Source: Candidatus Woesearchaeota archaeon
GTDB lineage: Archaea; Nanobdellota; Nanobdellia; Woesearchaeales; UBA10216
DNA: 32,845 nucleotides
Direction of reading: 5' to 3'
Assembly (NCBI GenBank): GCA_016188205.1
Contig: JACPIG010000061.1
Coordinates: forward strand, 1-32,845
The position numbers and the translations under genes were made by a program. This document shows, in pieces, positions 7,326-31,398 of this stretch. Under the pieces are notes generated by a model. That model worked only from the letters and a program-made list of their open reading frames with translations, had not been told where the DNA came from and did not search any database. Numbering within the stretch: the first letter of the stretch is position 1; each line of letters starts with the position of its first letter.

Positions 7326-7347
7326 ACAGCCGCGATTGGTTTTCATG

Positions 7348-7397
7348 TATATAAATATTGCCAGATAAAACCACAAGTTTTGCAAAGGCTTTATAAT
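7348..7397. promoter_or_regulatory. Divergent promoter pair (two TATA boxes) for 7325(-) and 7420(+), both apparently leaderless
   Basis: tatataaa at 7348-7355 reads TTTATATA on the minus strand and lies about 26 nt from the ATG at 7325. tttataat at 7390-7397 lies about 26 nt from the ATG at 7420. Confidence 0.55.
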
Positions 7398-10182: not shown

Positions 10183-11667
10183 TCACACCATCATCAAAAA
10201 CAAAGATAATGGTACTTTGACATAATTCCGGTACATGCCGAGCTCATCCTTTGAAATCAAGACCCCTCTATTGAATGACTTGAAGCCTATAAAGTCAGAG
10301 TTTGATATTGTTGCCTGATATTTGACTTCAAAAGGATAATACTTGTCGTCATGCATCACTACAAAATCAACTTCTTTTTTGCTTTTAGCTTCATAATAGC
10401 ATATCGTGCTTTTTGGATCAAACAAATCACGAGGATTTAAGCTATAAGCCAATCTACATAAATGATTGTAGACAACTCCCTCAACAATCTTGCTTTTTAT
10501 TTCTAAATTCATCAGGTTCTCTTTTGCATTCACAAAATAGCTGGTTTTACTATTTGACCAGCCATGCAGGGCATGAAAGAAGAAAGGGTCAAGAATATAG
10601 ATTTTTTTCATAAAATTGTGAATTCTTTTGTCATGAATTGAGCACCTATAAGAAATATTGGCGATATACAATTCTTCAAGAGCAGTGATATACTCCTGGA
10701 CTGTGTTGTGGGATTTTATTTCAGTCGTTTTGGTGAAGCTATTCCAGCTTATTGGGCAGGATAATGTAACAAAGATTTCCCTCAGTATTTGTTTAAAATA
10801 CAGCTCTTTGTAATTATACTTATTCAAATCGCCAATAACTGCATTAAGATATATGTTGAATAGTTTCACAGATATTGCGCCTGTGGATTTGTATTCATTT
10901 ATAACTGATGGAACTCCGCCAGTAAGCAGATACATCTCCAATAAAGCATCCAACTCTTTTTTTAGGAGCATTAAATCTTCAATTGTCTTGTCAATTTTTC
11001 CTTCAAATAATTCGAGGATTTTTCTATGCTTATCCTCTTTTTTTATTAATCCCGCATCAAATAATTTATCAGTAAATTCTGGCTTGATTAGTTTTACAAA
11101 TTCTGAAAATTTCATGGGCAAAAGTATTTTGTCCAGCGGATCATCTCCAGAACCCCCTCTCCTTCCAGGCATAAGCTCTGTTGAATGTTTCAAATCCATT
11201 GAATGCGAGCCAGTGACTATTATTGAACAATTTACAAAATCGCCTTTATTAGCAAAGTAAATCAGCTCTCTTGACCAATCTTTAACAGCACAGATTTCGT
11301 CAAAAAATAAATACTTTCTCTCTGACTTTTCTTCAATTCTCCAGTTAAGATATGTTTGAATTATCTTGTTTAGCTCTTCTGCGGTGTTTCTTTCAAATGA
11401 CCAAAAGAAGATATTTTCTGGCTTGACATGCTTGTTATGCAGCAAGTCCCTGATGATTAGCTTGATTAGTGTTGTTTTGCCTACTTGCCTTGGCCCGCGT
11501 ATAGTATAAATCACATCCTGGTCAAGTTTAACATAACGCCTTATATTAGGATCCCATTTATACTCTAATTCCTCAATCTGCGTGAGTTTAAAATCCGAAT
11601 CAATGTTCTTTTTATCGACCCACCATTTGTTTTGGTCAGATAATTGGCTTATATCAAATACGCTCAT
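10183..11667 (-). CDS. AAA+ ATPase of the AAA_14/DUF4143 type, in a low-GC patch
   Basis: Walker A is IRGPRQVGKTTL and Walker B-like is YLFFDEICAV. The long C-terminal region is typical of DUF4143-family ATPases (from memory). The codons are visibly A/T-rich relative to neighbouring genes. TATA tttatata lies about 27 nt upstream of the ATG at 11667. Confidence 0.8.
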   Translation of the reverse strand: MSVFDISQLSDQNKWWVDKKNIDSDFKLTQIEELEYKWDPNIRRYVKLDQDVIYTIRGPRQVGKTTLIKLIIRDLLHNKHVKPENIFFWSFERNTAEELNKIIQTYLNWRIEEKSERKYLFFDEICAVKDWSRELIYFANKGDFVNCSIIVTGSHSMDLKHSTELMPGRRGGSGDDPLDKILLPMKFSEFVKLIKPEFTDKLFDAGLIKKEDKHRKILELFEGKIDKTIEDLMLLKKELDALLEMYLLTGGVPSVINEYKSTGAISVKLFNIYLNAVIGDLNKYNYKELYFKQILREIFVTLSCPISWNSFTKTTEIKSHNTVQEYITALEELYIANISYRCSIHDKRIHNFMKKIYILDPFFFHALHGWSNSKTSYFVNAKENLMNLEIKSKIVEGVVYNHLCRLAYSLNPRDLFDPKSTICYYEAKSKKEVDFVVMHDDKYYPFEVKYQATISNSDFIGFKSFNRGVLISKDELGMYRNYVKVPLSLFLMMV

Positions 11668-15818: not shown

Positions 15819-16661
15819 TTATGATAGCCTACTGTCCGTAATTGTGCGCAGCAAAATTTCCTTAAAGCCGGGGTTTACATCAGTTATTATTGACACATTT
15901 CCATACACTGCTTTTTCAGTTATTGCGCTGTCTGCGAAGTGATGCACAACAAGCGGGTCATAAAGGTATGCGCAGTCCTGCTCAGCTTTTCCCATCCAGG
16001 ACTGAGCAGCAGCATGAATGTAAGCAGAAGCTGAGGCTGGAACTCCTCCTGATTTTATCAGCCCAAAATCCTCTCTTGTCAGGGAGCTTTTCTTGCATAC
16101 TTCTGTCGTGACAATGGTTATGGGCGCTGGCGATGCAAAGACAATGTCAACAGCCTCAGGGTCAACCTTGAAGTTGTGCGCCCTGTAGTTGATGTAAAAC
16201 GCGCCAGGCGTTATAATAGCGTTGCCCATGGCGTATATGTGGCTGACAAGGGCAGGGAGGTCAGGGTACTTTTGGAAAGCCCTTGCAATGTTAGTCATCG
16301 GGCCTATTGACGCGATGCCTACATTATTCCTGCTCGCGTATATTGCTTCAGCGATTGCCTCAACACCATCCAGCCTTATGTCAAGGCTTTCAGCAGCATC
16401 CACAAAATCCGCGCCTTCATCCCCTTCCCAGTAAAGGTGCTTCTGCTTCAACGGCTTTGACTCGCCTGCAGCAACAGGAATATCTGCGCCCAGAAGCATA
16501 ACCAGCTTTTTCGCTATGCGCGCCCTGACGTAAGCGTCTCCGTGAACTGTTGTCACCAGCTTAATGTTCATCCCCAGTTTTACCGCGTACATTAATGCTA
16601 TCGCGTCATCAACATCAGTCCCTATGTCCGTATCTATGATTATGGCTTCGTCAATGCTCAT
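15819..16661 (-). CDS. Inosine/uridine-preferring-type nucleoside hydrolase (IUNH family)
   Basis: The N-terminal fingerprint is IIIDTDIGTDVDDAIALMYA (DxDxxxDD). The gene overlaps the upstream gene by 4 nt (16658-16661). Confidence 0.88.
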   Translation of the reverse strand: MSIDEAIIIDTDIGTDVDDAIALMYAVKLGMNIKLVTTVHGDAYVRARIAKKLVMLLGADIPVAAGESKPLKQKHLYWEGDEGADFVDAAESLDIRLDGVEAIAEAIYASRNNVGIASIGPMTNIARAFQKYPDLPALVSHIYAMGNAIITPGAFYINYRAHNFKVDPEAVDIVFASPAPITIVTTEVCKKSSLTREDFGLIKSGGVPASASAYIHAAAQSWMGKAEQDCAYLYDPLVVHHFADSAITEKAVYGNVSIITDVNPGFKEILLRTITDSRLS

Positions 16662-17578
16662 TTTCCATACCTCTCAGCCACAGCAGCAAAAAGGTTAAGC
16701 GCGCTGATAACTGAATCGCGCATCATGCATATGTCGTCGCCAAGCATAAAAGCCCTGTAGCCCATCCTGAGAAGATTATCAACATCGCCTATGTCCTGGC
16801 ATGACGGCTCAAGGCTTTCCGCGAGCGAAGGGAAAATCCTTGACGCAACAATGGCATTTTGCTCCTTTGCAACTATGAGCTCGCAGGCAGCAATAACATG
16901 ATGAGGCATCTTCAGCTCAGTGTAAAGGTCGCCCCTCGCAGCCATAAGCCTTGTTTTGCCTTCCGGCTTCCATAGAGTCTTGACATAATCCATTCCCTTC
17001 ACAGACTCAATCTTCTCAACAACATTGGCAGCAGAGTCAAGAGCCCTCAAGTCAGAAATGTCCTCTGGCTTCTCAACAAATGAAAGCATGTAATTATGCG
17101 CGCCAACCTTTACAGCAGCTTCAACATACCTTTTGTCAGTGTCAGTCATGTATCCCTCTATTGACAATGAAGGGTGCGGGATGTTTATTGACTCTCCCTC
17201 ACCGACAACCCTTTTCGGCCCGTCCTGCATTATGAGCCTGCTGCCGTCTGCAGCAAGAATCACAGCACTTTCCTGCCCGTCGTGGAAGTAAGCCCTCACA
17301 TTCGGCTCAACAGTTATCCTGTGGCTTATCCCGATTTCCGTAAATGGGGGGACAGCATACCCGACAACCCTTATCTGCCTGCATTTGAGGTCTATCCACA
17401 ACTCCTTTCCAAAAGTTCCAGCCTCGTGAAAAAGCCTTTTAAGCACGTCCTCAAGCGAGTCAGAGCCCTTAACAGGCATGACTGTGTTAAGCCTTATGCC
17501 TGAAACAACCTGATGGCTTAGCACGTCCCTCAGGTAAGGCGCGTACGGAGGCATTGTGACTATTGCGGTTGCTTCCAT
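16658..17578 (-). CDS. Pyruvate-kinase-like barrel protein (A and B domains only, no C-terminal regulatory domain)
   Basis: SGIRLNTVMP compares with ARLNFSHG, and WIDLKCRQIRV with DTKGPEIR. GESINIP compares with KGVNLP, MLSFVEKPEDI with ALSFVRxAxDV, and VVEKIES with IISKIEN. LMAARGDLYTEL compares with IMVARGDLGVEI. At 306 aa it is shorter than a canonical PK by about the size of the C-terminal domain (estimate from memory). Confidence 0.6.
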   Translation of the reverse strand: MEATAIVTMPPYAPYLRDVLSHQVVSGIRLNTVMPVKGSDSLEDVLKRLFHEAGTFGKELWIDLKCRQIRVVGYAVPPFTEIGISHRITVEPNVRAYFHDGQESAVILAADGSRLIMQDGPKRVVGEGESINIPHPSLSIEGYMTDTDKRYVEAAVKVGAHNYMLSFVEKPEDISDLRALDSAANVVEKIESVKGMDYVKTLWKPEGKTRLMAARGDLYTELKMPHHVIAACELIVAKEQNAIVASRIFPSLAESLEPSCQDIGDVDNLLRMGYRAFMLGDDICMMRDSVISALNLFAAVAERYGK

Positions 17579-17581
17579 TGC

Positions 17582-18652
17582 TCACCTTCCTGCCTTCAGC
17601 TCATAAATCCTGTCAGCTGCAGACACAAGCCTTTCCAAGCCGCTTACCTGCCTTATCCATGATTCAGGAAAGACCATTCCGTTTTTCGCCCCAGCCAGAG
17701 CGCCGTAAATCGCGCCAGTGGTATCTGTGTCGCCGCCGAAATTAACAACCTCAACCAGCCCCTCTACTGGATTGTCCCAGTACTTCTGCAGCATGAACAA
17801 AGCAAAAGGGTAAGAGCTGAATACGAGGCTGCTGCTGCCCAAATTCCTGTGCGCATCAGCAGCTTCTGCATCCATGCTGGCGGCAACCCATTCAACCCTT
17901 TCCGAGAGGCTGCCCGAGCCTGAACGAGCGTTGCTTCTGCCAAGCGGCATTTCGTAACGCCTGCACACACTAGTGAGAGAACTTACAAAATCATTTCTTG
18001 GAATATCCTGAAGCAGCCCGTATATGGCATGAGCCTGAACAACTCCGCTGGCAACAGAGCGCGGATCAAGGTGCGTGATTCTCCCTGTCAATCCCGCATA
18101 CTGCAGCCCCTTTTCGCACTCACCTGTTGCATCCATATACATCCCGACAGGCGACATCTTCATTGCAGGAGCATTTCCAGGAGCGCCTACAACACCTGAT
18201 TTTTCAGGCGGAAATCCTTCCATCAATCTCCTGAAGCCCCTGATTGTCGTATAGCCAAAGCCTCCTGTTGACCTTCCATCCGGAAGAAGCCTCTGCACAT
18301 ACTCTGCCAGCTGCTTTCCAGCAATATGCCCAAGGTCAAGACCTTTACATTCAGCAATTGCCTCAGCCAAAGCCAGAGTCAGAATCGTGTCGTCTGTGTA
18401 ATCTCCAGCTTTCATTCCTGCGTCTGCGGCAAAATACTTCAGCTTTCCGAACTCGTCATGCCTGACAACTTTGCCATTGCCATCCCTCAAAACAAACGGC
18501 TCAACCGGCTCAGTTATCCTTCCCACATGCTTTTCTATCTGCTCCTTCTTCCAGCCCTCAACAGGCTTTCCAAGGATGTCACCTATGGCACAGCCTACAA
18601 GCACAGCCCTGTACCTTTCTCTCATGTCCGGCATATTCGGCATATTCGGCAT
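17582..18652 (-). CDS. ADP-ribosylglycohydrolase (ARH/DraG family)
   Basis: The N-terminal motif is RYRAVLVGCAIGDILGKPVEG, followed by YTDDTILT and the C-terminal metal motif GGDTDTTGAIYGALAGA. First ATG is at 18652, with three more in-frame ATGs in a 9-nt tandem repeat (18625-18652). Confidence 0.9.
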   Translation of the reverse strand: MPNMPNMPDMRERYRAVLVGCAIGDILGKPVEGWKKEQIEKHVGRITEPVEPFVLRDGNGKVVRHDEFGKLKYFAADAGMKAGDYTDDTILTLALAEAIAECKGLDLGHIAGKQLAEYVQRLLPDGRSTGGFGYTTIRGFRRLMEGFPPEKSGVVGAPGNAPAMKMSPVGMYMDATGECEKGLQYAGLTGRITHLDPRSVASGVVQAHAIYGLLQDIPRNDFVSSLTSVCRRYEMPLGRSNARSGSGSLSERVEWVAASMDAEAADAHRNLGSSSLVFSSYPFALFMLQKYWDNPVEGLVEVVNFGGDTDTTGAIYGALAGAKNGMVFPESWIRQVSGLERLVSAADRIYELKAGR

Positions 18653-18843
18653 ATTCAATACCTCTGCATTCCATATGCAAATTTACAGCAGGCTAAACTA
18701 CAGAGGGCTAAGCCAGGATTTCCTCAAGGGGGCTTTCACCTGCCAAGCCCTCCTTGGGTTCCTGAGGCATAAGCTCCTCGTAGCTGCAAATTATTTTCCG
18801 GCTCATCCCACACCTCATTCCTTTCCCTGCACGCTTTCATCCC

Positions 18844-19839
18844 CTATGGCTTGTCCACCATCTCGTCAAGAGGCACAGACACGCCGCCTGAATCAGGCCT
18901 GTCAATAACAGACCTGTTTGAAGCTGCTGACAGGTCAGGGATGAACCTCAGCGAGTCGTAAACCGCTGAGCGCACAGCAGGGTCTGTCTGCCTTGAACCC
19001 ATGCTGTCCTTGAAGTCTCCGTATTGTCCCCAGTGCTTTGCTATTATTCCCATCGCTATGTCAACAACCCTGTCGCTGCCCGGAAGCTCAATTATGCGCT
19101 GCCTTCCAATGGCTGCTGCCCAATAGTCAACAACCTCCCTGTCTATTCCCGGATCATTTCCACTTTCATATGGCTTGTGCAGGAAGAAAACATTGAACCT
19201 CTGCATCAGCCCTTCCCATACAGCCTTTCCTTCAAGCGGCGACTGAAGCCTGTCGCCAATGTAGTGCTCCACCTGCCTTGGTTCAACTTTGCTGTAGAAC
19301 TTTTCATCCCCGCAAACCAGCAGGAAAGGCGACTTGGCGTTTGGCATCTCAACTTTTTTCAAGGCAAAATAGCCGAACAGCTCATAGCTCTCGGAGTACT
19401 GCCCGCCTCCTTTACCTTCAGGGCACAGCGCCTTTATGTGGTCCTCAAGCTCAACGCCCTTGCCAAAATTGTTGACCTGCAGCGGATAATTGTCGCAGTT
19501 TGCATCCCCAATTGCTGCAAACGATATCTCCACGTCAGGCCTGTACTGAGACAGGGTCTGGTAAAGCAATGGCAGCCTGTCAAAAATCTCAGACGGCCAG
19601 TCCTGCATAGAGCCTGTAACGTCTATTGCGAAAACTATCGGGTTTTCACTCGCTGTCGTTATAACCTTTCCGTTTGTGCCAACCAGCTTTGAGTCAGGGC
19701 TTGACCTTTTTGCGTAAGCCCTTCCTCCACGCGCACTCGCGGCAGACGCAAGCTTATCAAGGTAAGGCGCCCTCGCAGAGTCGTACTTGTATGCGTCCGG
19801 CTTTTTCCAGTTTGCAGTTCCTCCTCCCCAGCTGTACAT
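18844..19839 (-). CDS. von Willebrand factor A (vWA) domain protein
   Basis: Start trimmed to the ATG at 19839, which is preceded by GGAGGTAAACAAA. The MIDAS-like motif is IVFAIDVTGSM, followed by alternating beta-alpha pattern (SFAAIGD, FLLVCGDEKF, NVFFLHKP). Confidence 0.72.
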   Translation of the reverse strand: MYSWGGGTANWKKPDAYKYDSARAPYLDKLASAASARGGRAYAKRSSPDSKLVGTNGKVITTASENPIVFAIDVTGSMQDWPSEIFDRLPLLYQTLSQYRPDVEISFAAIGDANCDNYPLQVNNFGKGVELEDHIKALCPEGKGGGQYSESYELFGYFALKKVEMPNAKSPFLLVCGDEKFYSKVEPRQVEHYIGDRLQSPLEGKAVWEGLMQRFNVFFLHKPYESGNDPGIDREVVDYWAAAIGRQRIIELPGSDRVVDIAMGIIAKHWGQYGDFKDSMGSRQTDPAVRSAVYDSLRFIPDLSAASNRSVIDRPDSGGVSVPLDEMVDKP

Positions 19840-19906
19840 TTTGTTTACCTCCAGAGCTATCGCTAGCTCTAAGCATGTTCCTTCATTTTTGTCTCTCATT
19901 GCACGC

Positions 19907-20683
19907 TCAAACAGCGTGCCTTCTTTCAAAGACCTTCTCCCTTATGTCTGAAAGCCTTTGCAAAGGGTTGTCCTTATCCCAGTTAGGCCTATCCACAGGA
20001 TTGTAACGAAGCAGGCTGCTGCAAAACTCCGCAAGCTCATCAGGCACATCTGAAGGAAGCGACTTCTTTGCCACGTCACCGCCAAGAGCTGTAAGCATGA
20101 CCAGCCCTGCGCCGTAAAGGTCAGTTTCCGGAATAGGCGGCTTTCCGTCAAGCACCTCAGGAGCAACATATGCAGGTGTATATCCAACAACTTTTGAGCG
20201 GCTCGTCGGGTTAAGGACTGCAAGCCCCCAGTCAATCAGCTTTATGTCCCTTTTTTTCGGCTCAACAAGCACGTTCTGCGGCTTTATGTCTGAATGTATT
20301 ACACCGTTTGAATGCGCATAATACAATGCGCCAAGCAGGCGCTCAGTAATCCACGAAGCATCCTCAGGATGAATCCTTCCCCTTCCTGACTTAACAATCT
20401 CGTCAAGAGTCCTGCCTTCTATGTAACTTAGCACAATCATCGCGTTCCTGTCGTCAAGCCTTATGTAGTCCCTCACTGCCGGTATGGAGTGGTACTCGTA
20501 AAGCTCCCACATCACCTTCGCCTCTCTCCTTAGAAGCTCAACATCATCAGGTGTTGTGCGGATGTTCTGCTTCAGGCAAGCCAGCTCGTCAAGCATCACA
20601 TGCCTTGCAACATAAATCCTTGCAAAGCCGCCCTCGGCAAGCCTGCTTTCAATCCGATAATTCCCGATTGTTGGCATTTTCAT
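19907..20683 (-). CDS. Hanks-type Ser/Thr protein kinase (stand-alone catalytic domain)
   Basis: The Gly loop is LAEGGFARIY and the catalytic-loop region is ACLKQ ... VIHSDIKPQNVLV (HSD, so non-RD). DWG replaces DFG in KLIDWGLA, followed by YVAPEV and DLYGAGLVM. Confidence 0.9.
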   Translation of the reverse strand: MKMPTIGNYRIESRLAEGGFARIYVARHVMLDELACLKQNIRTTPDDVELLRREAKVMWELYEYHSIPAVRDYIRLDDRNAMIVLSYIEGRTLDEIVKSGRGRIHPEDASWITERLLGALYYAHSNGVIHSDIKPQNVLVEPKKRDIKLIDWGLAVLNPTSRSKVVGYTPAYVAPEVLDGKPPIPETDLYGAGLVMLTALGGDVAKKSLPSDVPDELAEFCSSLLRYNPVDRPNWDKDNPLQRLSDIREKVFERRHAV

Positions 20684-20694
20684 CACTCTTTTCC

Positions 20695-21651
20695 CTACTT
20701 TCCTGCTGTCGCTGCAGTGTAAAGCGCCAGCTCAATATGCGCAGGCTCCAAAAGGGCATACCCATTGGATTCTATTGCTGCAGCCACCCTTTTAGCCCAG
20801 CCCGGCCACTCTGTCTTTTCCATTCCACAAATAACCTGCCCAACAAGTTCCTGTGTATAGCCCCTTGACAAAAAGAAGAGCTCGTCCATCACCATTGATG
20901 CCTTGCCCAGCTCACCCCTTGGGAAGCCGTTGTCATGATTTGAGTCCAGCATCTGCACCAGCCTGCCTGTGGCGTGTTCAAAAGCGCCTGCAGGAATTAA
21001 GCCGGCATATCCAGCATCTCCTGATTCAGGAGGAAGCTGGCACAGACCCCTGTAACCCTCATAAAGCCCGCCTTCAAGAGGCTCCCTGTAAAACGAGCCT
21101 TCAGACCTTTCACCAGCCTCATTGAGCATGTCCTCCCACGTGGGCTGAAGCCGCCTGTCAGTCTGAACTGCTGAAAGCGAGCGCGCCAAATGCGCGGAAA
21201 TACTTGTCCCTGCAATATCCGCCTTCATCTTAGGGCTGTTAATCAAGCCGTATAAAGATTCAAAAAGAGCAGCGTCCTTTCCCAGATAGCCGCAAAACTG
21301 GACAAGGTTCTGCACATAAAGCCTTCTCAGGTAAAGCCCCTCATTGCCTTCACCAAGCACATTCAAGTTGATTTCATGCCCTGTGTCTGGCTCTGTGTCA
21401 GGCAGCGTTTCCAGAAGCCTTATCGCCATCTCCCTGCACTTAACAGTGTACGCTCCTTTATTGTCGTCTGCGCTTTCAATCAGCCTGAGCATCCTTACAA
21501 CCTGCATATATTCGCCCCCACTCGCATACCCGCCTTGGTCATAGCCCTGCCCTATTGCGCGCGCCAGTTCGCCAATGTCGCCTTCGTCCAGTGCCTTGAG
21601 CAGCCTTTCGCTCCCCTCAAATTCGTGCATTGCAATTCTGCCGATGTCCAT
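20695..21651 (-). CDS. Hypothetical protein (about 318 aa) with no recognisable motif; first gene of the vWA/kinase module
   Basis: ATG at 21651 is preceded by GGAGGTG and lies 2 nt after the TGA of the Nudix-NMNAT gene. The stop is 11 nt before the kinase ATG. I see no PP2C, FHA or P-loop signatures. Confidence 0.6.
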   Translation of the reverse strand: MDIGRIAMHEFEGSERLLKALDEGDIGELARAIGQGYDQGGYASGGEYMQVVRMLRLIESADDNKGAYTVKCREMAIRLLETLPDTEPDTGHEINLNVLGEGNEGLYLRRLYVQNLVQFCGYLGKDAALFESLYGLINSPKMKADIAGTSISAHLARSLSAVQTDRRLQPTWEDMLNEAGERSEGSFYREPLEGGLYEGYRGLCQLPPESGDAGYAGLIPAGAFEHATGRLVQMLDSNHDNGFPRGELGKASMVMDELFFLSRGYTQELVGQVICGMEKTEWPGWAKRVAAAIESNGYALLEPAHIELALYTAATAGK

Positions 21652-21653
21652 TT

Positions 21654-22811
21654 TCACACCTCCGCAGGATGAAGCCTCTCGCTTTCAACACATTCAGGGC
21701 TCCTGTAATCCTTTCCTGAAAGCTGCGCGATTGTCTCCAGCCCGAACTCGCGCCTGAACCTGTCAGCAAGCCCATGGCTTTCCATGTAATCAGCAACAGC
21801 AGCAGGCACAAGCGCTTTCCAGTTGCCAGCCTTAGCCATCTCCATCCTCACAGTTGTCGCGTTCAGTTTTATCCATTTCTCAGGCGGGATAAGCTCGTCA
21901 GCAGGATTAATTATCACATATGTGCCCTCAAGCAATTCCTTCACATAGCCGTTCGCAGTCACAAAAGCGTCAAGGGAGCCGTACTGCAAAGCAACCTCCC
22001 CAGCCCACTTCCTTCCATCCCTGAATTCAGGAATGTGCCCGTAATCAGGAATCTCAACAAAGCTGTAGTTTGAGAACCTCGGGGAAAGGTATGCGCCAAT
22101 CATCTCCCTTGTTTCTTCTGCAGTAAAAGGGTTCCTTGCATTGTACTTGTTGCAGCTGCCTATTCCTATAGTGACGTGCTCTGCCTGTTCACACACAGCC
22201 TCAAGCATACCTGCTGCGCCATTATGCAAAGGTTTGAACCTGCCTATGACTCCAACCCTTCCCAGCTTTTTCACATGAGAATCTTCGGCTGAATCTTTGG
22301 CAGCGCCCATTACTCCGGATGCGGAATATCCCTTTTCCAGCAGATACTTTTCCAGAGTTTTTGCATGGTCAAACGCAAGCCCGCCTTTTGCAATGAGCGC
22401 CTGTATTTCTGGAATCGTATAAAGCCTTGCAGAAGCCGCATCATCACCAGCCCATATTTTGCCTGCGCCTTTTGCAATGTATGTCACGCTGATTATGTGC
22501 GCCCTCGGGTCGCGTGCAGGGTCTGAATGGACGCAGAAAGGCATTTCAGGCTCATTTACAATAATCTCAAGCCCGGTTTCCTCTTTCGCCTCCTTCGCAG
22601 CGTTCTCCTCCAATGTAAGCCCTGACTCGGCAAACCCTCCGGGCAGAGCAATCCCATAAGGATAGTTTTTCCTTGTAATAAGGACAATCCCATCATCAGA
22701 GCCGTCTGTGTACTCTATAATGATGTCAGTTGTCAGCAGGGGATTAGTGTCTCTCCTGTGGATGGTGTTCTGTGCCTTTTGTGCCTGTTGTGCCGTCTGT
22801 GTTGTGCTCAT
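21654..22811 (-). CDS. nadM: Bifunctional-type fusion: N-terminal Nudix hydrolase plus C-terminal archaeal-type NMN/NaMN adenylyltransferase
   Basis: The Nudix box is GGFAESGLTLEENAAKEAKEETGLEI. The NMNAT part reads VIGRFKPLHNGAAGMLE...VTIGIGSCNKYNARNPFTAEETREMI...NATTVRMEMAKAGNWKALVP, closely paralleling the M. jannaschii-type NMNAT as I recall it. ATGA overlap with the nadE stop (22808-22811). Confidence 0.85.
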   Translation of the reverse strand: MSTTQTAQQAQKAQNTIHRRDTNPLLTTDIIIEYTDGSDDGIVLITRKNYPYGIALPGGFAESGLTLEENAAKEAKEETGLEIIVNEPEMPFCVHSDPARDPRAHIISVTYIAKGAGKIWAGDDAASARLYTIPEIQALIAKGGLAFDHAKTLEKYLLEKGYSASGVMGAAKDSAEDSHVKKLGRVGVIGRFKPLHNGAAGMLEAVCEQAEHVTIGIGSCNKYNARNPFTAEETREMIGAYLSPRFSNYSFVEIPDYGHIPEFRDGRKWAGEVALQYGSLDAFVTANGYVKELLEGTYVIINPADELIPPEKWIKLNATTVRMEMAKAGNWKALVPAAVADYMESHGLADRFRREFGLETIAQLSGKDYRSPECVESERLHPAEV

Positions 22812-25577: not shown

Positions 25578-25721
25578 TCAATCCATAAGCTCAAACTCGT
25601 ATGCCTCATGTTCTCCGCGCATTGAGCCAATGCCTGTGCCAAATGCAATGAGCACCGCATACTTGCCGCTCTTTCCACGCACAGTTCCAAGCTGCTCCAT
25701 TCCCTGCGTTACCTTCACCAT
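25578..25721 (-). CDS. Unannotated 47-aa ORF between pncB and pncA
   Basis: ATG at 25721 is preceded by GGAGGGATGCAGG, and TGA is at 25580-25578, 18 nt before the pncA ATG. Translation is MVKVTQGMEQLGTVRGKSGKYAVLIAFGTGIGSMRGEHEAYEFELMD. It is below the ORF-track length cutoff and sits directly behind one copy of the repeated promoter/operator box. Confidence 0.4.
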   Translation of the reverse strand: MVKVTQGMEQLGTVRGKSGKYAVLIAFGTGIGSMRGEHEAYEFELMD

Positions 25722-25760
25722 CCTGCATCCCTCCGCAACACTTCCACTAATTTTGTTGCT

Positions 25761-25790
25761 GTAATTTTTACACTTACTAAGCCATTAAAA
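25761..25790 (-). promoter_or_regulatory. Promoter/operator box copy A (internal promoter overlapping the last pncB codons)
   Basis: The minus strand reads TTTTAAtggcttAGTAAGTGTAAAAATTAC. The same TATA-like element and spacing to the AGTGTAAAAA..AC motif are seen in copies B and C. Confidence 0.5.
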
Positions 25791-27216
25791 CAGGCTCTGC
25801 ACATGCGTGCATTGCATACTTTTCCTTAAGCACTTGAACAAGCCCCTGAAGCCCTTCTGACAGCTCAACCCTGTAGCCGTCTGCAGGAGCCCTCACAGCC
25901 CTGATATCATCAGGAAGCATTCCAACGCAGGCAAGCGCGTAGCTTCTTGTTTCTTTGAGAGTCTTTCTTTCAGCAACCCTTCTTCCATCCCTCACAACCT
26001 GCTCAAGAAGCGGAACTCCTTCAACATGCTCGCCTTCAAGCGCTATTACGTCATGCAGGCATCTTCCTTCACCATCCACAACCCTGTAAACCTGCTTTTT
26101 CCCAGGCAAAGTCTGCTTGCCCTCTGAAAGCTTTATTTTAGCCCCGTCTTCGTCCTCAACAAGCTTGTAAACCCCTGATATTGCCGCAACAGGCTTTGCA
26201 GTAATCATCTCTGTGCCAACACCATAAGCATCAATCCTCGCCCCCCTCCTTCGGAGCTCCTCTATCTTGTACTCATTGAGATCGTTGCTCGCAACAATCC
26301 TTACATATCCCATGCCTTCATCGTCAAACATCTGCCTGACTTCTATAGACAGGCCTGCAAGGTCGCCTGAGTCAAGCCTTACAGCATACAGCCTTTTTCC
26401 CTCTGCCTCAAGCTCTTTTGCAACCGTGACTGCGTTCCTTGCGCCCTGAATAGTGTCGTAAGTGTCAATCAGCAGCGTTGACTTGTCAGGGAAAGTCCTC
26501 GCATAAGCCCTGAAAGCGTCAATCTCTTCCTGGAAGCTCATCACAAAGCTGTGCGCATGAGTTCCTGCAACCGGTATTCCGTATTCCATCCCTGCCTTCA
26601 CGTTGCTTGTTGCTACAGCCCCTCCAATGTATGCCGCCCTTGCACCTTCCATTGCAGCATCCTCGCCCTGCGCCCTGCGCAAGCCGAAATCCACAATAGC
26701 GGCGCCATTCGCGGCATTAACAACCCTGCTTGCCTTTGTTGCAATCATGGTCTGGAAGTTTATTATGTTCAGCAACGCTGTTTCAAGGAACTGAACCTCA
26801 GCCCTTTTCCCGGTAACCCTCAATACAGGCTCGTCTGGAAAGAAAGGCGCTCCTTCCCTTAGTGCATATATGTCACCTGTGAACCTCATATCTTTCAGAA
26901 ACTCAAGGAACGCTTCGCTGAAAGTCCCCTGCTGCCTCAGGTAGCTTATGTCTTCTGGCGTGAATTCTATACCTGTGGCATAGTCAATTGCATCCTCTAT
27001 TCCGTTCGCTATGTAGTATCCCCAATTATCAGGCAGATTCCTTATGAACAGCTCAAATGTTGCAGTGTCGTTCTTTCCATTCTCAAAGTATGCGGCAGCC
27101 ATGGTAAGCTGGTAGAGGTCTGTCAGCATGGTCTTGCCTTGCATGCTTTGAATGCCATGCATGCCCTGCTCATCCTGCGCCAGTCTTTCCAAATCAGCCA
27201 CCATACCAATCACCAT
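25777..27216 (-). CDS. pncB: Nicotinate phosphoribosyltransferase
   Basis: MLTDLYQLTMAAAYF, IVDFGLRRAQG and PVAGTHAHSFVMSF are NAPRTase-family hallmarks. Start trimmed from 27324 to the ATG at 27216, because 27217-27345 is a promoter block duplicated upstream of 29148. Confidence 0.9.
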   Translation of the reverse strand: MVIGMVADLERLAQDEQGMHGIQSMQGKTMLTDLYQLTMAAAYFENGKNDTATFELFIRNLPDNWGYYIANGIEDAIDYATGIEFTPEDISYLRQQGTFSEAFLEFLKDMRFTGDIYALREGAPFFPDEPVLRVTGKRAEVQFLETALLNIINFQTMIATKASRVVNAANGAAIVDFGLRRAQGEDAAMEGARAAYIGGAVATSNVKAGMEYGIPVAGTHAHSFVMSFQEEIDAFRAYARTFPDKSTLLIDTYDTIQGARNAVTVAKELEAEGKRLYAVRLDSGDLAGLSIEVRQMFDDEGMGYVRIVASNDLNEYKIEELRRRGARIDAYGVGTEMITAKPVAAISGVYKLVEDEDGAKIKLSEGKQTLPGKKQVYRVVDGEGRCLHDVIALEGEHVEGVPLLEQVVRDGRRVAERKTLKETRSYALACVGMLPDDIRAVRAPADGYRVELSEGLQGLVQVLKEKYAMHACAEPVLMA

Positions 27217-27222
27217 ATAGTT

Positions 27223-27345
27223 ATTGTGTTTTTTACACTTACTTTGAGCCTTAAAAACGCTCAACGCCACAATTAGTGTATAGTATACACTAACTACTAT
27301 ATAAATGTTTTGGAAATGTGGCATATATGGTATATACTGAAAGAA
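27223..27345 (-). promoter_or_regulatory. Conserved intergenic module 1: tandem TATA boxes each followed by a TAGTGTA-type operator
   Basis: attgtgttttttacact (27223-27239) is 17/17 identical to 29177-29193. ttaaaaa at 27251-27257 is TATA-like on the minus strand. A perfect 19-bp palindrome tagtgtata-g-tatacacta lies at 27274-27292. A second TATA tatataaa is at 27298-27305 and ggtatatact at 27329-27338. Confidence 0.6.
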
Positions 27346-28275
27346 CTATCGCGCCTGCCACCTTACAAGGTGCGCTTTCTGGTATGCGGGCATGATTGTT
27401 GCCGTTTTGCCTGCTGTGAACTCCAGATAATCAGACTCTATTCCGTCGCTGAAAATCACTCCGCTCTCAGGCATTTGAGACACAACCTTCAATGGATTAT
27501 TTCCTGCTGCCCTGCCCCTTATTATGCCTGTCCCTGTGATTCTTGAAGGAAAGGGATTCATCACTGTAAAGACAAGGTAATCCGAATCCCTTGGAAACGC
27601 CACCTGCTCCAACGGGCAGCTCTGATTGCCGGCAAGCGCATACGCTCCGACCATTATGGATGTCAGCCAGCCTGTTGAGCCTGCCCCTGTTGATACCAGT
27701 ATTCCGTCTGACGACTGCATTTCAGACTTTTTCCCATGCTCAATCCTGTACTTTGCCGAAACATGAGAACTCCTTCCAATATACAAGTCGTTCAATGCCA
27801 GCATTGACTGACCGTCCTCCATTACAGCCTCAGCCATTGTAATCTCCTCAAGCCCTGTTTTCCCTCCCAGAGTGTCCTCAAGACACTTCCTGAAAGTTTC
27901 CGGCCTGCATGTAGTGAAGGTGTCATCAAACCTTTCGGCGTCGGGATTGACAACGATTATAGGCTGCCCCTGCGCGTATTTTGCCACGTTCACAAACAAG
28001 CCAGGGTCTCCAACTACAACAATCAGGTCTTTTTCGGCGAACATATGTGTTGGCAGAAAGCCCTTTTCTATTACTTGCGACCGCATTGAAGAAGGAATTG
28101 CAGAAGCTGTCATTGCAACGCCCCTATGGTAAGCATCATGCGCTTCCCGGTAGCCGCTGTAGGACTCACCCCTGCTTTCAAGATAGAATTTTACCTGAGA
28201 AGCTGTTGCATGGCGGCGCAGCAGCTCCTCAAGCGGTGTATTCCTTCTTACCACGACAATCCTGTCCAGCCCCAT
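27346..28275 (-). CDS. Divergent NAD-kinase-family protein
   Basis: LIVVVGDPGLF stands in place of GGDGT. ALNDLYIG is NE/NDxxI-like. SDGILVSTGAGSTGW corresponds to DGxxxSTPTGSTAY. The gene starts 3 nt after the stop of the SPFH gene. Confidence 0.68.
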   Translation of the reverse strand: MGLDRIVVVRRNTPLEELLRRHATASQVKFYLESRGESYSGYREAHDAYHRGVAMTASAIPSSMRSQVIEKGFLPTHMFAEKDLIVVVGDPGLFVNVAKYAQGQPIIVVNPDAERFDDTFTTCRPETFRKCLEDTLGGKTGLEEITMAEAVMEDGQSMLALNDLYIGRSSHVSAKYRIEHGKKSEMQSSDGILVSTGAGSTGWLTSIMVGAYALAGNQSCPLEQVAFPRDSDYLVFTVMNPFPSRITGTGIIRGRAAGNNPLKVVSQMPESGVIFSDGIESDYLEFTAGKTATIMPAYQKAHLVRWQAR

Positions 28276-28278
28276 TTT

Positions 28279-29148
28279 TTATCCCGCATCCCTCAGCGCA
28301 GCCAGCAGCTCTGTTGTTATTGTCAGGTTTCCCACATTGCCTCTCCTGCCCAGCTCGTAAAGTGCCAGAGCAGCAAGCTTGGCAGGAGTGTGTGCGTCAA
28401 ACGGAGCTAATCCGAGCCTGGCTGCTGCAGCTTCATATTCAGCTTTCTTTGTCGCATTCCCGCCCTGAAGCTCAATGAGTTGCTTCCTTCCTCTTTCCAG
28501 ATCATGCTCTGTTTTGAGCTCTGCCCTCTTTATTATCCTGTCCTGTTCAACAGCCGCAGCCCTTCTGCCGTAAGTTGCGGCATCTGCAAGCTTCAATAGC
28601 CCTTCCCTGTATTCTGCCCCAAGCGCTTTGGCAATATCAGGCTGTGCCTGCGGAGCGCTGAAATAAACAGCCATCACACTTATGCCCAATCCTTTCACCA
28701 CAGGGGAAGCATTCAGCGCGCCCATGACGTGCTCTGAGAGCTCTTCACTCATCCCCAGCAATTCCTCCAGCGTCTTTTCCTGGATGCACCTGCGTGCATT
28801 CGCCCTGGCTATCTCAAGCACGTGGTCCGGTAGTTTTTCAGGGTCCTCTGACAGGTAATCCCTTGTTCCTGGGTCTATGGCAAAATTATACTCTCCGAGC
28901 ACCTTCCGTGGCTCCGCAATCCGGTACAGAAATCCGCCCTGTAAGATAACTTCCTGTTTGTTCGCACTCATTTCCCTGAAATCAAAGGGCTTTTCTGCAA
29001 CATTTACAGGCACAAGCTCTATGCTGGTGTTAAACCTTAGATAGTGCCTGCCGATACCTGTCCCCTCGCCTATTGTCTTTCCCCCTGAACTGAACCTTAC
29101 ATATTCAGTCGGCTCTGCCCTGAAATAGCTTACAATGCCCATGTTCAT
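28279..29148 (-). CDS. SPFH/Band-7 (stomatin/prohibitin/flotillin-like) domain protein without an obvious TM segment
   Basis: VILQGGFLYRIAEPRKVL...LEIARANARRCIQEKTLEELLGMSEELSEHVMGALNASPVVKGLGISVMAVYFSAPQAQPDIAKAL is followed by an Ala/Glu/Arg-rich coiled-coil tail. A GGAGGGG site is upstream. The second ATG at 29142 is spaced better from it. Confidence 0.65.
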   Translation of the reverse strand: MNMGIVSYFRAEPTEYVRFSSGGKTIGEGTGIGRHYLRFNTSIELVPVNVAEKPFDFREMSANKQEVILQGGFLYRIAEPRKVLGEYNFAIDPGTRDYLSEDPEKLPDHVLEIARANARRCIQEKTLEELLGMSEELSEHVMGALNASPVVKGLGISVMAVYFSAPQAQPDIAKALGAEYREGLLKLADAATYGRRAAAVEQDRIIKRAELKTEHDLERGRKQLIELQGGNATKKAEYEAAAARLGLAPFDAHTPAKLAALALYELGRRGNVGNLTITTELLAALRDAG

Positions 29149-29176
29149 CCCCTCCGTTTTCCTGCTTTTTATTAAT

Positions 29177-29345
29177 ATTGTGTTTTTTACACTAAGTTTT
29201 TGATTTAAAAATTACTTTTCTTTCAAATAAAACGAAGTGCCTTTTTGTCATTTTTTAACCGCTGTTGCCATAGTTATTGTATGATATACACTATTACTAT
29301 AAAAATATTTCGCCAATTCACTATATAGGATATATACTCTGAGAA
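29177..29345 (-). promoter_or_regulatory. Conserved intergenic module 2 (paralog of 27223-27345, with an insertion of about 40 bp)
   Basis: attgtgttttttacact is at 29177-29193 and the TATA-like ttaaaaa at 29205-29211. A partial palindrome tattgtatgatatacacta lies at 29275-29293. tataaaaa is at 29298-29305 and ggatatatact at 29328-29338. Order and spacing match module 1. Confidence 0.6.
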
Positions 29346-29366
29346 TTTCAAGAAATCCGGCAAAAC

Positions 29367-30041
29367 TTAAACAAACACGTGAATTCTGTCCTTAAGAGCC
29401 CTGTAAGACCTGCTCCTGAACCTGTAAAGAAGCGCGGGCCTGTGAGCACCCTCCATCTTTGTCTCCCTTGCGCTGGCGAGGATGTCAAGCGCCTTAATCC
29501 TCTTCCTGAAATTCCTCTTGTCAAGCTTCTCGCCCATAACCCTCTCATAAAGCTCCTGCAGCTCAGTTAGAGTGAACTTCTCAGGCAGAATCTGCGCAGC
29601 TATGTTTGTGGTCTGGATTTCAAACCTCAGCTCTGAAAGGGCATCATTAAGAATCTTCATGTGGTCAAAGGCAAGGTTCCTGACGCTGCTTACGCCCACC
29701 CACTGCGCTTCCATCGCATCAGCCTTTGCTTCAAGCCTGAACTTCTCCGAGTCAATGAGCGCCATGAAGGCAATGCTTACAATCCTTCCCCTCGGGTCCC
29801 TGCTGACATCGCCGTAAGCTGTAAGCTTTTTGATAAAGATTCCCCTGACGCCAGTTTCCTCCTCCAGCTCCCTCAAAGCCGCCTTCTCAAGGCTTTCATC
29901 AATCTCAACAAAGCCGCCAGGCAATGCGAACTGCCCTTTGAACGGAGGGTTCTTTCTCCTGATGAGCAGAACCTGCAAAACGCCTTTGCTGACTGTGAAC
30001 ACAACAATGTCTGCTGCAACGTGGATGTTTTTCCATTCCAT
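29367..30041 (-). CDS. nrtR: NrtR-type regulator (Nudix domain fused to a C-terminal winged helix)
   Basis: The Nudix box GGFVEIDESLEKAALRELEEETGV is intact. It is followed by LAFDHMKILNDALSELR and FTLTELQELYERVMGEKLDKRNFRKRIKALDIL...HRPALLYRF, which matches the NrtR C-terminal wHTH pattern as I remember it. Confidence 0.87.
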   Translation of the reverse strand: MEWKNIHVAADIVVFTVSKGVLQVLLIRRKNPPFKGQFALPGGFVEIDESLEKAALRELEEETGVRGIFIKKLTAYGDVSRDPRGRIVSIAFMALIDSEKFRLEAKADAMEAQWVGVSSVRNLAFDHMKILNDALSELRFEIQTTNIAAQILPEKFTLTELQELYERVMGEKLDKRNFRKRIKALDILASARETKMEGAHRPALLYRFRSRSYRALKDRIHVFV

Positions 30042-30042
30042 G

Positions 30043-30070
30043 GTGTAAAACTCACATGAAGGATTTAAAT
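30043..30070 (-). promoter_or_regulatory. nrtR promoter: TATA box plus an operator-like GTG-N7-CAC site abutting the start codon (possible autoregulation)
   Basis: On the minus strand ATTTAAAT (30063-30070) lies about 25 nt upstream of the ATG at 30041. GTGAGTTTTACAC (30043-30055) resembles GTGTTTTTTACAC of boxes B and C, in the opposite orientation. Confidence 0.45.
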
Positions 30071-30100
30071 ATTTTTCTGTTCAATAATCCATATAGTTAG

Positions 30101-30123
30101 AATACTAATTGGCAATTAGTATT
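30101..30123. promoter_or_regulatory. Perfect 23-bp palindrome AATACTAATTG-G-CAATTAGTATT
   Basis: Arms 30101-30111 and 30113-30123 are exact reverse complements. A third ATTAGTAT half-site occurs at about 30146-30153. Confidence 0.6.
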
Positions 30124-30926: not shown

Positions 30927-31017
30927 TATGAAACTGGAAAGCATGGGAAGTATATAAATCTTTCTGTTTTCATATGAAACCCGAATAACAATGCTTATAT
31001 ATGAAACCCGAAACATG
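30927..31017. promoter_or_regulatory. Three direct repeats TATGAAAC-NN-GAA(A/T)..(C/A)ATG in the divergent promoter region (candidate ArsR operator array)
   Basis: The copies are tatgaaactggaaagcatg (30927-30945), tatgaaacccgaataacaatg (30973-30993) and tatgaaacccgaaacatg (31000-31017). TATA-like tatataaa (30951-30958) and ttatatat (about 30995-31002) lie between them. Confidence 0.55.
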
Positions 31018-31398
31018 CAAGGCATGCCTCCGCTCCTCTTTGATGAAATCGTGCACAAGGCGCTTTCAAATGATGCAAGAAGAGAGATACTGCTTGCCCT
31101 GTCAAAAAAGGAGAAATACCTCACCGAGCTTGCAGATGAGCTCGGAAAGAAGCCGCAGACAATAGACTTCCACCTTTCCCTGCTTTCAGAGATAGGGCTG
31201 GTTGACTCGGAATGGAAGGAAGGAAAAAAATACTATTCCCTGAAAGACAAAAGAATCCTTGACTTCCTCAGGGACAGGAAACCCGTTCCCCCGGGAATGA
31301 GGCCCAAGCCACCGCATGAGCTGATACTTGAGGCAATATCCAAGCTTAACAAAAGGCTGGACGGGATTGAGAGGAAGATAGACGGGATTAGGAAGTAG
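30991..31398 (+). CDS. ArsR/SmtB-family winged-helix regulator with a C-terminal coiled-coil tail
   Basis: ALSNDARREILLALSKKEKYLTELADELGKKPQTIDFHLSLLSEIGLVDSEWKEGKKYYSL is an ArsR-type HTH. Repeat 3 lies inside the first codons, so the real start may be the ATG at 31015 or 31024. The latter is about 26 nt from ttatatat. Confidence 0.78.
   Translation: MLIYETRNMQGMPPLLFDEIVHKALSNDARREILLALSKKEKYLTELADELGKKPQTIDFHLSLLSEIGLVDSEWKEGKKYYSLKDKRILDFLRDRKPVPPGMRPKPPHELILEAISKLNKRLDGIERKIDGIRK

Follow-up and report, generated by a model that had tools for sequence, protein, structure and literature searches.

Bacterial NrtR proteins such as Slr1690 of Synechocystis and SO1979 of Shewanella oneidensis (PMC2330246) combine a Nudix domain with a winged helix, and their genes cluster with pncB, nadE, nadM and nadA for the synthesis and salvage of nicotinamide adenine dinucleotide (NAD). 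In most groups the published NrtR motif is a 21-bp palindrome with a GT-N7-AC core (Rodionov 2008, PMC2330246). The regulators are autoregulated, and ADP-ribose frees them from DNA in vitro. NrtR has been treated as bacterial; a literature search found no paper linking it to DPANN or to any archaeon, and a 2023 Sulfolobus study, in which NrtR was described as bacterial, found no Nudix protein bearing a helix-turn-helix (HTH) in Sulfolobus. Two other bacterial regulators, NadR (TGTTTA-N6-TAAACA) and NiaR, also repress NAD synthesis or salvage genes through palindromic operators, but their folds, operators and effectors are different and no homolog of either is involved at the locus considered here. 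The subject of this report is the NAD gene cluster of a 32,845-nucleotide contig, analyzed as a whole (the window) and deposited as Candidatus Woesearchaeota archaeon, in which the minus strand at 29367-30041 encodes an NrtR-like protein and the promoters carry repeated palindromic boxes. These boxes are very probably the operators of that NrtR and organize an NAD-salvage regulon in the archaeon. Family membership, motif, conservation, geometry and gene associations were observed directly, and an Orc1/Cdc6 gene at 2192-3268 agrees with the archaeal origin of the window.

The regulator, a 224-amino acid protein, is annotated in the deposit only as 'NUDIX hydrolase' (MBI2574956.1). Residues 7-126 form an N-terminal Nudix-fold domain (Pfam NUDIX, 1.5e-20) that also matched Nudix and ADPRase structures in the PDB, while residues 149-208 form a C-terminal NrtR-type winged helix (PF21906 NrtR_WHD, 4.1e-25, 88.2 bits vs a cutoff of 27). 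The nearest structures, aligned over their full length, were AraR of Bacteroides thetaiotaomicron (BtAraR, 5e-43) and S. oneidensis NrtR (SoNrtR, 1e-31). In the BtAraR-DNA crystal (PDB 5BS6/5DD4; PMC4666351) the bound sequence was GTGT-N7-ACAC, and the GTGT motif is defined by the recognition-helix residues Lys179, Arg180, Asn181 and Lys184 and by Lys204 and Arg205 of the wing. The corresponding helix of the window protein, D174KRNFRK180, was identical to that of BtAraR, and both this helix and the wing, GAHRPA, were invariant in 31 archaeal homologs. The recognition helix thus suggests a residue-level link between the window NrtR and the boxes described below.

The Nudix box, GFVEIDESLEKAALRELEEETGV, was intact and fits the signature GX5EX7REUXEEXGU (G43-x5-E49-x7-R57 E58 L59 x E61 E62 x G64 V65); some homologs have Asn at the Gly position. 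Judged by its sequence, the protein would belong with the active Nudix hydrolases, whereas the signature is perturbed in Slr1690 and SO1979. A preliminary description of the locus, made from the DNA letters alone, had called an archaeal NrtR regulon with an intact Nudix box in the regulator notable. However, bacterial NrtR-family proteins with an intact signature were already known, as in NuhA of Synechococcus sp. PCC 7002, a highly active ADP-ribose pyrophosphatase that sets a precedent for a bifunctional enzyme/regulator. NuhA is a bacterial protein whose activity was measured, whereas catalysis by the archaeal protein is a prediction.

Two pocket residues of the window protein, N31 and R84, are the counterparts of Asn43 and Arg98, the ADP-ribose contacts of SoNrtR, and favor a ligand of the ADP-ribose type. 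AraR has Phe and Gly at these positions. It resembles the window system in its DKRNFRK helix, in the GTGT-N7-ACAC register and in having two operators per promoter, but it senses L-arabinose, has a degenerate Nudix box, fills the nucleotide pocket with Phe36, Leu67 and Gly89, and controls ara genes. The window NrtR has Asn, Glu and Arg in place of these three residues and lies in an NAD cluster. An AraR-type response to arabinose was considered and rejected on the intact Nudix box, the pocket residues Asn31, Glu62 and Arg84, and the NAD rather than ara context.

All of the repeats fit one 21-bp box, TTAGTGTA-N5-TACACTAA, with the invariant core TGT-N7-ACA, and the GT-N7-AC core that the preliminary description had given for bacterial NrtR sites is indeed that of the published motif (Rodionov 2008, PMC2330246). 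Each box was scored first with a seed matrix and then with an independent matrix trained on 29 sites from other archaeal loci, from which the sites of the window and of its closest relative, locus L081, were excluded; scores are given below in that order. The consensus of the independent matrix was TTAGTGTATAATATACACTAA, and T5 G6 T7 and A15 C16 A17 were invariant in the 29 sites. A scan with the independent matrix returned five strong sites in the window, beginning at 27273, 29274, 27221, 29175 and 25756, which scored 17.9-32.5 bits and all fell within the NAD cluster, while local-composition block shuffles predicted 0.035 sites at 15 bits or above. The only two further matches were rejected as regulon members and are probably due to chance. 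The match at 11220-11240 (10.1 bits) falls within an AAA_14 gene. That at 804-824 (11.0 bits) overlaps a TATA-like stretch 23 nt before an open reading frame (ORF) at 847-1494 that had no Pfam match; its invariant T7 is broken and it lacks the ACA.

The sites were of two classes. The class I module consists of a transcription factor B recognition element (BRE)-like RAAA, 2-3 nt, TTTAWATA, 0-4 nt and the box. In the pncB promoter, which reads ccAAAAcaTTTATATAgtag and then TTAGTGTATAC..., the BRE/TATA, identified by pattern match on the minus strand at 27298-27311, was AAAACATTTATATA, and the block CCAAAACATTTATATA was invariant in the window, L081 and L001. The box, TTAGTGTATAcTATACACTAA (27273-27293, minus strand; 27.7 and 32.5 bits), begins 4 nt after the TATA and has the GTGT-N7-ACAC register. 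It reads TTAGT-GT-ATAcTAT-AC-ACTAA, so that the perfect palindrome noted earlier at 27274-27292 in fact extends over 21 bp (0.00 expected by chance). The second class I promoter of this kind precedes a pair of genes encoding an SPFH/Band-7 protein and a distant NAD-kinase-like protein (the SPFH/NADK-like pair). Its BRE/TATA, GAAATATTTTTATA (29298-29311, minus strand; pattern match), was conserved in L081, and the box, ATAGTGTATATCATACAATAA (29274-29294, minus strand; 22.7 and 25.1 bits), lies 3 nt after the TATA and was identical in L081. It contains a copy of the palindrome with two mismatches at 29275-29293 (0.00 expected by chance). The preliminary description had ranked the palindrome module as secondary; it proved instead to be the primary, canonical and conserved promoter-operator, placed 0-4 nt after the BRE/TATA.

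The class II box has the form ag followed by TAAGTGTAAAAAAYACAATAA. It comes 49-125 bp after class I and precedes the start codon, or the Shine-Dalgarno sequence belonging to it, by 2-30 nt. As had been described, three boxes of the window share one A-rich pattern, present as 36-nt copies (repeat family D1) at 25757-25792, 27222-27257 and 29176-29211, designated A, B and C, and the identical 17-mer in copies B and C, attgtgttttttacact, was found at 27223-27239 and 29177-29193. The sequence GTGTWWWWWACAC occurred in the 32.8-kb window only at 27226 and 29180, where 0.22 occurrences were expected. The copy B box, TAAGTGTAAAAAACACAATAA (27221-27241, minus strand; 19.7 and 23.5 bits), lies 4 nt before the first pncB ATG (27216) and was kept in L081, L001, L083, L003 and L090. 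Copy C, TTAGTGTAAAAAACACAATAT (29175-29195, minus strand; 20.1 and 23.0 bits), was identical in L081 and lies 26 nt before the SPFH start region, which carries GGAGG. The internal box, copy A, TAAGTGTAAAAATTACAGCAA (25756-25776, minus strand; 14.8 and 17.9 bits), had been placed inside the last pncB codons. This is true only of its T-rich tract at 25782-25790, whereas the box itself comes right after the pncB stop codon (25777-25779), in the spacer between pncB and a 47-amino acid ORF and 34 nt before the latter. The same position between pncB and pncA was boxed in L081, L001 (21.6 bits), L085 (17.8 bits), L088 (21.5 bits) and L003 (14.8 bits), and a box after pncB was found in six lineages.

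The A-rich 'AGTGTAAAAAACAC' box had been taken for a GTGT-N5-ACAC palindrome. That register fits the window, but the relatives read GTGTAAAAAATACAATAA or ...AAAAAATACAATAA; it was rejected because their sequences lose the N5 ACAC yet keep the N7 ACA, and the N5 symmetry of the window is coincidental. The N7 register was preferred because it also matches the BtAraR crystal DNA. In that register the A-rich boxes align to the same 21-mer as TAAGT-GT-AAAAAAC-AC-AATAA, with the upstream half perfect and the downstream half degenerate (ACAA for ACAC), and would form a second, weaker operator. Hand calculation from the box coordinates put the centers of class I and class II boxes 49-125 bp apart. No significant helical phasing emerged, about nine of the 13 distances being no more than a quarter turn away from a whole number of turns.

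The preliminary description had also placed a proximal TATA ahead of each A-rich box. T-rich tracts are indeed present 8-12 nt upstream of the class II boxes of the window, at 27249-27257, 29203-29212 (TTTTTAAAT) and 25782-25790. Of 16 class II sites in relatives, roughly 10 have such a tract as well, and the spacing would put the start inside the box. Each long spacer might therefore hold two independent TATA promoters with operators of their own, the A-rich box acting mainly on the gene-proximal one. On balance this is less likely than not. The tracts match the BRE plus TTTAWATA of class I promoters poorly and are frequent rather than universal, being absent from L087, L090, L001-5147, L091 and L092; the copy C tract sits in a 24-nt indel missing from L081; and a run of T might just as well signal termination or pausing in archaea. 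Conservation of the proximal TATA is lacking, so that tandem promoters are one reading among others. The indel itself, AAAGAAAAGTAATTTTTAAATCAA on the minus strand at about 29200-29223, lies between the two SPFH operators and is absent at L081 10830-10838, so that the operator spacing shifts from 75 to 99 nt between two loci whose NrtRs are 96% identical.

Conservation was examined in archaeal gene contexts gathered from contigs encoding homologs; a scan of genome contigs gave mostly bacterial loci. The NrtR-family search returned thousands of proteins, the best-scoring named matches being mostly from Woesearchaeota and Nanoarchaeota, and homologs of 55-96% identity came mostly from metagenome-assembled genomes of these two groups. 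In about 25 related archaeal loci the box stands 0-4 nt after a BRE/TATA, ahead of nrtR, pncB, pncA, nadA, nadB, nadE or NAMPT. Eighteen archaeal loci (268 kb) contained 38 sites of at least 17 bits vs 0.2 expected. Thirty of these were directly upstream of nrtR, pncB, pncA, nadA, nadB, NAMPT-like or NAPRT-like genes, and the remaining eight preceded an SPFH operon, two genes without known function and a DAO/Mqo-like flavoprotein gene adjoining nadA. The class I layout was also present in L001, L083, L085, L087-L090, L008, L011, L019 and L091-L097, and a metagenome scan for TTTAWATA, 4 nt and the box found seven loci, six of which had pncB, pncA, nadE, nadA or NMNAT downstream. In an archaeal promoter with a repressor operator over this interval, BRE and TATA would be expected about 24-30 nt ahead of the start, with the operator in between. 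In all, the sequence pattern and spacing of BRE/TATA and box were conserved in about 30 promoters, with ATGs placed at the end of the box. At least 14 promoters have their ATG -2 to +6 nt from the box end, as is the case where class I stands alone, an arrangement that fits leaderless transcripts.

Two types of synteny recurred. In the first, nrtR is followed by pncB-pncA-nadE-Nudix-NMNAT, sometimes with an IU-nucleoside hydrolase and an NAD kinase gene, and in the second, seen in L087, by nadB-nadA-nadC; linkage of nrtR to NAD genes of either type was found in the window and in more than 12 loci. As far as sequence can tell, then, every feature of the NrtR family appears to be present: the Nudix fold, the NrtR winged helix, the 21-bp GT-N7-AC operator and the linkage to NAD genes. 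The idea of an NrtR-type regulon in an archaeon, with operators just downstream of the TATA, as advanced in the preliminary description, gains support from the Pfam domains, the deposit and its Orc1/Cdc6 gene, the motif and the conservation over about 25 loci.

It could be argued that the repeats are merely duplicated promoter DNA, or generic Woesearchaeota promoter elements, and not sites of a regulator. The long spacers at 27217-27345 and 29149-29366 have three colinear blocks in common (D1, D6, D3; 71-83% identity). Therefore a whole promoter module of about 130 nt was duplicated, and part of the identity between copies B and C derives from this duplication; AT-rich palindromes, moreover, arise easily. 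Nevertheless, this explanation is highly improbable. Among loci whose NrtRs are 47-70% identical, the 21-bp core was kept although the flanks are unalignable, and the boxes remained fixed where the surrounding spacers diverge or gain indels. No box accompanies the BRE/TATA elements of unrelated window genes, of which one stands 22 nt ahead of an ATG, the shuffled sequences gave almost no sites, and the box also occurs in bacteria, where promoters are of the sigma-70 type.

Among bacteria, cyanobacteria, Planctomycetota, Chloroflexota, Gammaproteobacteria and Omnitrophota have the same box immediately upstream of their nrtR homologs (45-51% identity). Over the 220 nt that surround the starts of bacterial nrtR genes, GTGT-N7-ACAC was about 80-fold enriched (41 hits in 15.4 kb vs 30 in 909 kb). 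This co-occurrence of box and nrtR across archaea and many bacterial phyla also argues against the alternative in which the boxes belong to another transcription factor, such as the ArsR-type protein encoded at 30991-31398 or the TrmB/MarR-like protein at 6456-7385, with the Nudix-winged helix protein acting mainly as an ADP-ribose pyrophosphatase. The intact catalytic signature and the presence of these HTH proteins nearby lend such a scheme some plausibility, but it is very unlikely, given that GTGT is read by an identical helix in BtAraR, that the DNA-contact residues are invariant and that the ArsR neighbor is not kept beside the cluster in other loci.

The regulator gene has a box of its own. 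A motif abutting the nrtR start had been pointed out, and GTGAGTTTTACAC is present there at 30043-30055. The 21-mer, TTCATGTGAGTTTTACACCAT (30040-30060, minus strand), overlaps the nrtR ATG by 2 nt and retains the TGT-N7-ACA core, with scores of 9.6 bits in the seed matrix and less than 8 bits in the independent one; it is a putative autoregulatory operator. The TATA, aaaaATATTTAAATcc (30063-30072, minus strand; assigned from sequence), is 2 nt upstream of the box, a geometry that would fit a leaderless transcript. Boxes at the nrtR position of relatives were stronger (L085, 18.1; L003, 18.0; L011, 20.2 bits), and more than 10 related nrtR promoters had the arrangement of TATA, box and ATG, which recurred in nearly all loci; nrtR is therefore probably autoregulated.

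What follows is inferred, namely that this protein binds DNA, which effector it answers to, whether it represses and where transcription starts. A dimer of NrtR would read the two GTGT half-sites, 7 bp apart in the box, by means of the DKRNFRK helix and the beta-hairpin wing. The class I box would fill the interval from TATA to start, roughly -21 to -1, and therefore bound NrtR should repress by blocking RNA polymerase recruitment or promoter opening. The class II boxes and the post-pncB box ahead of pncA-nadE-nadM may lie over the start site of a weak second promoter or else serve as auxiliary or roadblock operators, while the degenerate box between the nrtR TATA and its leaderless ATG would provide negative autoregulation. 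ADP-ribose, a breakdown product of NAD, is the likely signal for release of NrtR from DNA, which would de-repress pncB, pncA, nadE, the Nudix-NMNAT gene and the SPFH/NADK-like pair. With its Nudix box intact, NrtR may also hydrolyze ADP-ribose and so reset the signal.

An operator just downstream of the BRE/TATA is the typical position for archaeal repressors, which there block RNA polymerase recruitment. MDR1, Phr, LrpA, TrmB/TrmBL1 and NrpR bind between TATA and start and exert a block that is relieved by ligand. Like the system proposed here, these are bacterial-type HTH dimers on a palindrome, but they belong to unrelated protein families and answer to unrelated signals, and we know of none among them that controls NAD metabolism. 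The bacterial NrtR systems have the same box and, as predicted here, autoregulation; unlike them, the window host is an archaeon with BRE/TATA promoters and an operator abutting the TATA. Bacterial tandem sites are 23-39 nt apart from start to start and AraR operator sites 3 bp apart, while the second archaeal box lies 49-125 bp downstream; therefore operator placement differs between the domains.

Several observations weigh against the assignment of the boxes to an ADP-ribose-responsive NrtR repressor, 1) the best PDB match of the protein is the arabinose-responsive AraR and not an ADP-ribose-responsive NrtR, 2) some family members, such as NdnR, answer to NAD instead of ADP-ribose, 3) the geometry is not uniform, since the nrtR-associated boxes at L090 7784-7804 and L004 4138-4158 are directly upstream of the TATA, 4) the nrtR-proximal box of the window is weak (<10 bits), 5) class II and internal boxes often have no recognizable TATA, and 6) the scan of this organism covered one 32.8-kb contig, so that specificity holds for that contig. 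A box upstream of the TATA, as in L090 and L004, would hinder binding of the TATA-binding protein and transcription factor B rather than polymerase recruitment, or might point to regulation of a different sign.

The first three of these observations would also suit an NrtR that binds the boxes but responds to a signal other than ADP-ribose (NAD, nicotinate adenine dinucleotide, a sugar or another compound), or one that activates or acts in both directions. Effectors do vary within the family, and some archaeal activators use a position upstream of the TATA. This alternative is unlikely, since the residues through which SoNrtR contacts ADP-ribose have counterparts in N31 and R84, the substitutions specific to AraR are absent, the context comprises NAD metabolism and an ADP-ribosylglycohydrolase, and nearly all of the boxes are downstream of the TATA. 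The operator function of the boxes for NrtR, with ADP-ribose as the likely ligand, thus continues to be preferred.

This looks like the first description of the bacterial NrtR circuit for NAD control in Archaea, and no earlier description of a regulator of archaeal NAD metabolism seems to exist. A broader proposal, with a little less than an even chance of being right, is that it is the first NAD-homeostasis transcription circuit recognized in Archaea, in which a bacterial NrtR, its helix for DNA contact and its operator unaltered, was transferred, possibly repeatedly, to DPANN and the operator was moved from the bacterial tandem pattern (23-39 nt apart) to 0-4 nt behind the BRE/TATA, with downstream or intra-operon sites as possible roadblocks. 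In this proposal an active Nudix site would let the regulator break down the ADP-ribose that it senses, to give a self-resetting switch in organisms that depend on niacin salvage. The analysis provides an annotation rule for many homologs in Woesearchaeota and Nanoarchaeota and defines a regulon of pncB, pncA, nadE, nadM, nadA, nadB, NAMPT, the SPFH/NADK-like pair and several genes without known function. It offers a natural example of a bacterial repressor-operator pair re-fitted to the archaeal basal transcription machinery, as well as short, defined DNA and protein reagents for in vitro work on a lineage that is not culturable. Its importance is limited in that it extends a well-understood bacterial family, motif included, and reveals no new mechanism.

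In a crude neighbor-joining tree without support values (L001-L090), the archaeal NrtRs fell into at least three groups interleaved with bacteria, which is compatible with interdomain transfer; no claim is made for the number or direction of such events. A sequence from the candidate phyla radiation (Peribacteria, L043) nested among the Woesearchaeota. L001 and L002 are labeled 'Methanosarcinales' and P0017 'KSB1 bacterium', yet they show Woesearchaeota-like synteny or identity, and the labels could reflect mis-binning or mislabeling.

Every gene from 30041 down to 15819 in the window is on the minus strand, in the order nrtR-like, SPFH/Band-7, 309-amino acid gene, pncB, 47-amino acid ORF, pncA, nadE and Nudix-NMNAT. 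The SPFH/Band-7 gene (28279-29148; Pfam Band_7, 6e-12) is the first after the duplicated promoter module and is followed by the gene for the 309-amino acid protein (27346-28275). The latter had no Pfam match, but showed weak matches to NAD kinases in the PDB (7r4j, NADK2, 2.6e-6; 1yt5, Thermotoga NADK, 6.7e-5) and to the PF01513 gene of L085 (tblastn, 1.4e-11), so that the label 'NADK-like' appears acceptable as a statement of distant relationship. The pair, together with the duplicated promoter module between nrtR and pncB (27346-29366), occurred only in the window and in L081 (12735-13603). In L081, three additional genes of the TM2/DUF2752 type on the opposite strand separate the NADK-like gene from pncB. 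L004 also has an SPFH homolog, in an operon controlled by an NrtR box, and in L008, L011 and L019 nrtR is flanked by NADK-like genes.

Next in order are pncB, for nicotinate phosphoribosyltransferase (25777-27216; Pfam NAPRTase_N, 1e-36), and the 47-amino acid ORF (25578-25721). This ORF had no Pfam match but was conserved as a protein by tblastn, with 91% identity in L081, 50% over 22 amino acids in L001 and possibly a counterpart in L003. The NAD cluster includes in it a small conserved gene that has its own NrtR box. The segment 21654-25568 encodes pncA (Pfam Isochorismatase), a glutamine-dependent nadE (NAD_synthase and CN_hydrolase) and the Nudix-NMNAT fusion (NUDIX and CTP_transf_like), a synteny that was kept in L001, L003, L081, L083, L085 and L088-L090. 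The co-directional cluster runs on past the NMNAT gene (15819-21657, minus strand) with a 320-amino acid protein without known function, a Ser/Thr-protein-kinase-like protein (Pkinase, 7e-35), a 361-amino acid protein without known function, an ADP-ribosylglycohydrolase (2e-55), a pyruvate-kinase-barrel-like protein and an IU-nucleoside hydrolase. In L001, L003, L083, L087 and L089, too, NMNAT is followed by the kinase-like gene.

Some boxes in related loci point to other genes. Class I boxes at L008 5523-5543 (23.6 bits) and L019 1994-2014 (21.7 bits) precede a DAO/Mqo-like oxidoreductase that uses flavin adenine dinucleotide (FAD); in L008 the gene adjoins nadA, which has a separate box, and the oxidoreductase is a candidate for a non-orthologous stand-in for L-aspartate oxidase (NadB). 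Good boxes were also found ahead of genes without recognizable function at L087 2412-2432 (229 amino acids), L008 990-1010 (319 amino acids) and L096 1253-1282 (a small membrane protein), which are candidates for new members of an NAD or ADP-ribose regulon; the 229- and 319-amino acid proteins had no Pfam match.

Rfam gave no match at gathering thresholds anywhere in the window, and no tRNAs were found. The boxes were also considered as an RNA element, which was rejected because a 4-bp GUGU/ACAC hairpin was not kept in relatives and Rfam was without a match. Finally, a perfect 23-bp palindrome, AATACTAATTGgCAATTAGTATT, lies at 30101-30123. It comes 43 nt after the stop codon of a 74-amino acid gene, and the nrtR TATA is some 30 nt downstream of it. 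The palindrome is unrelated to the NrtR box and is missing from the matching L081 spacer; it could be the site of another regulator, such as the product of the nearby ArsR-type gene, or a hairpin.

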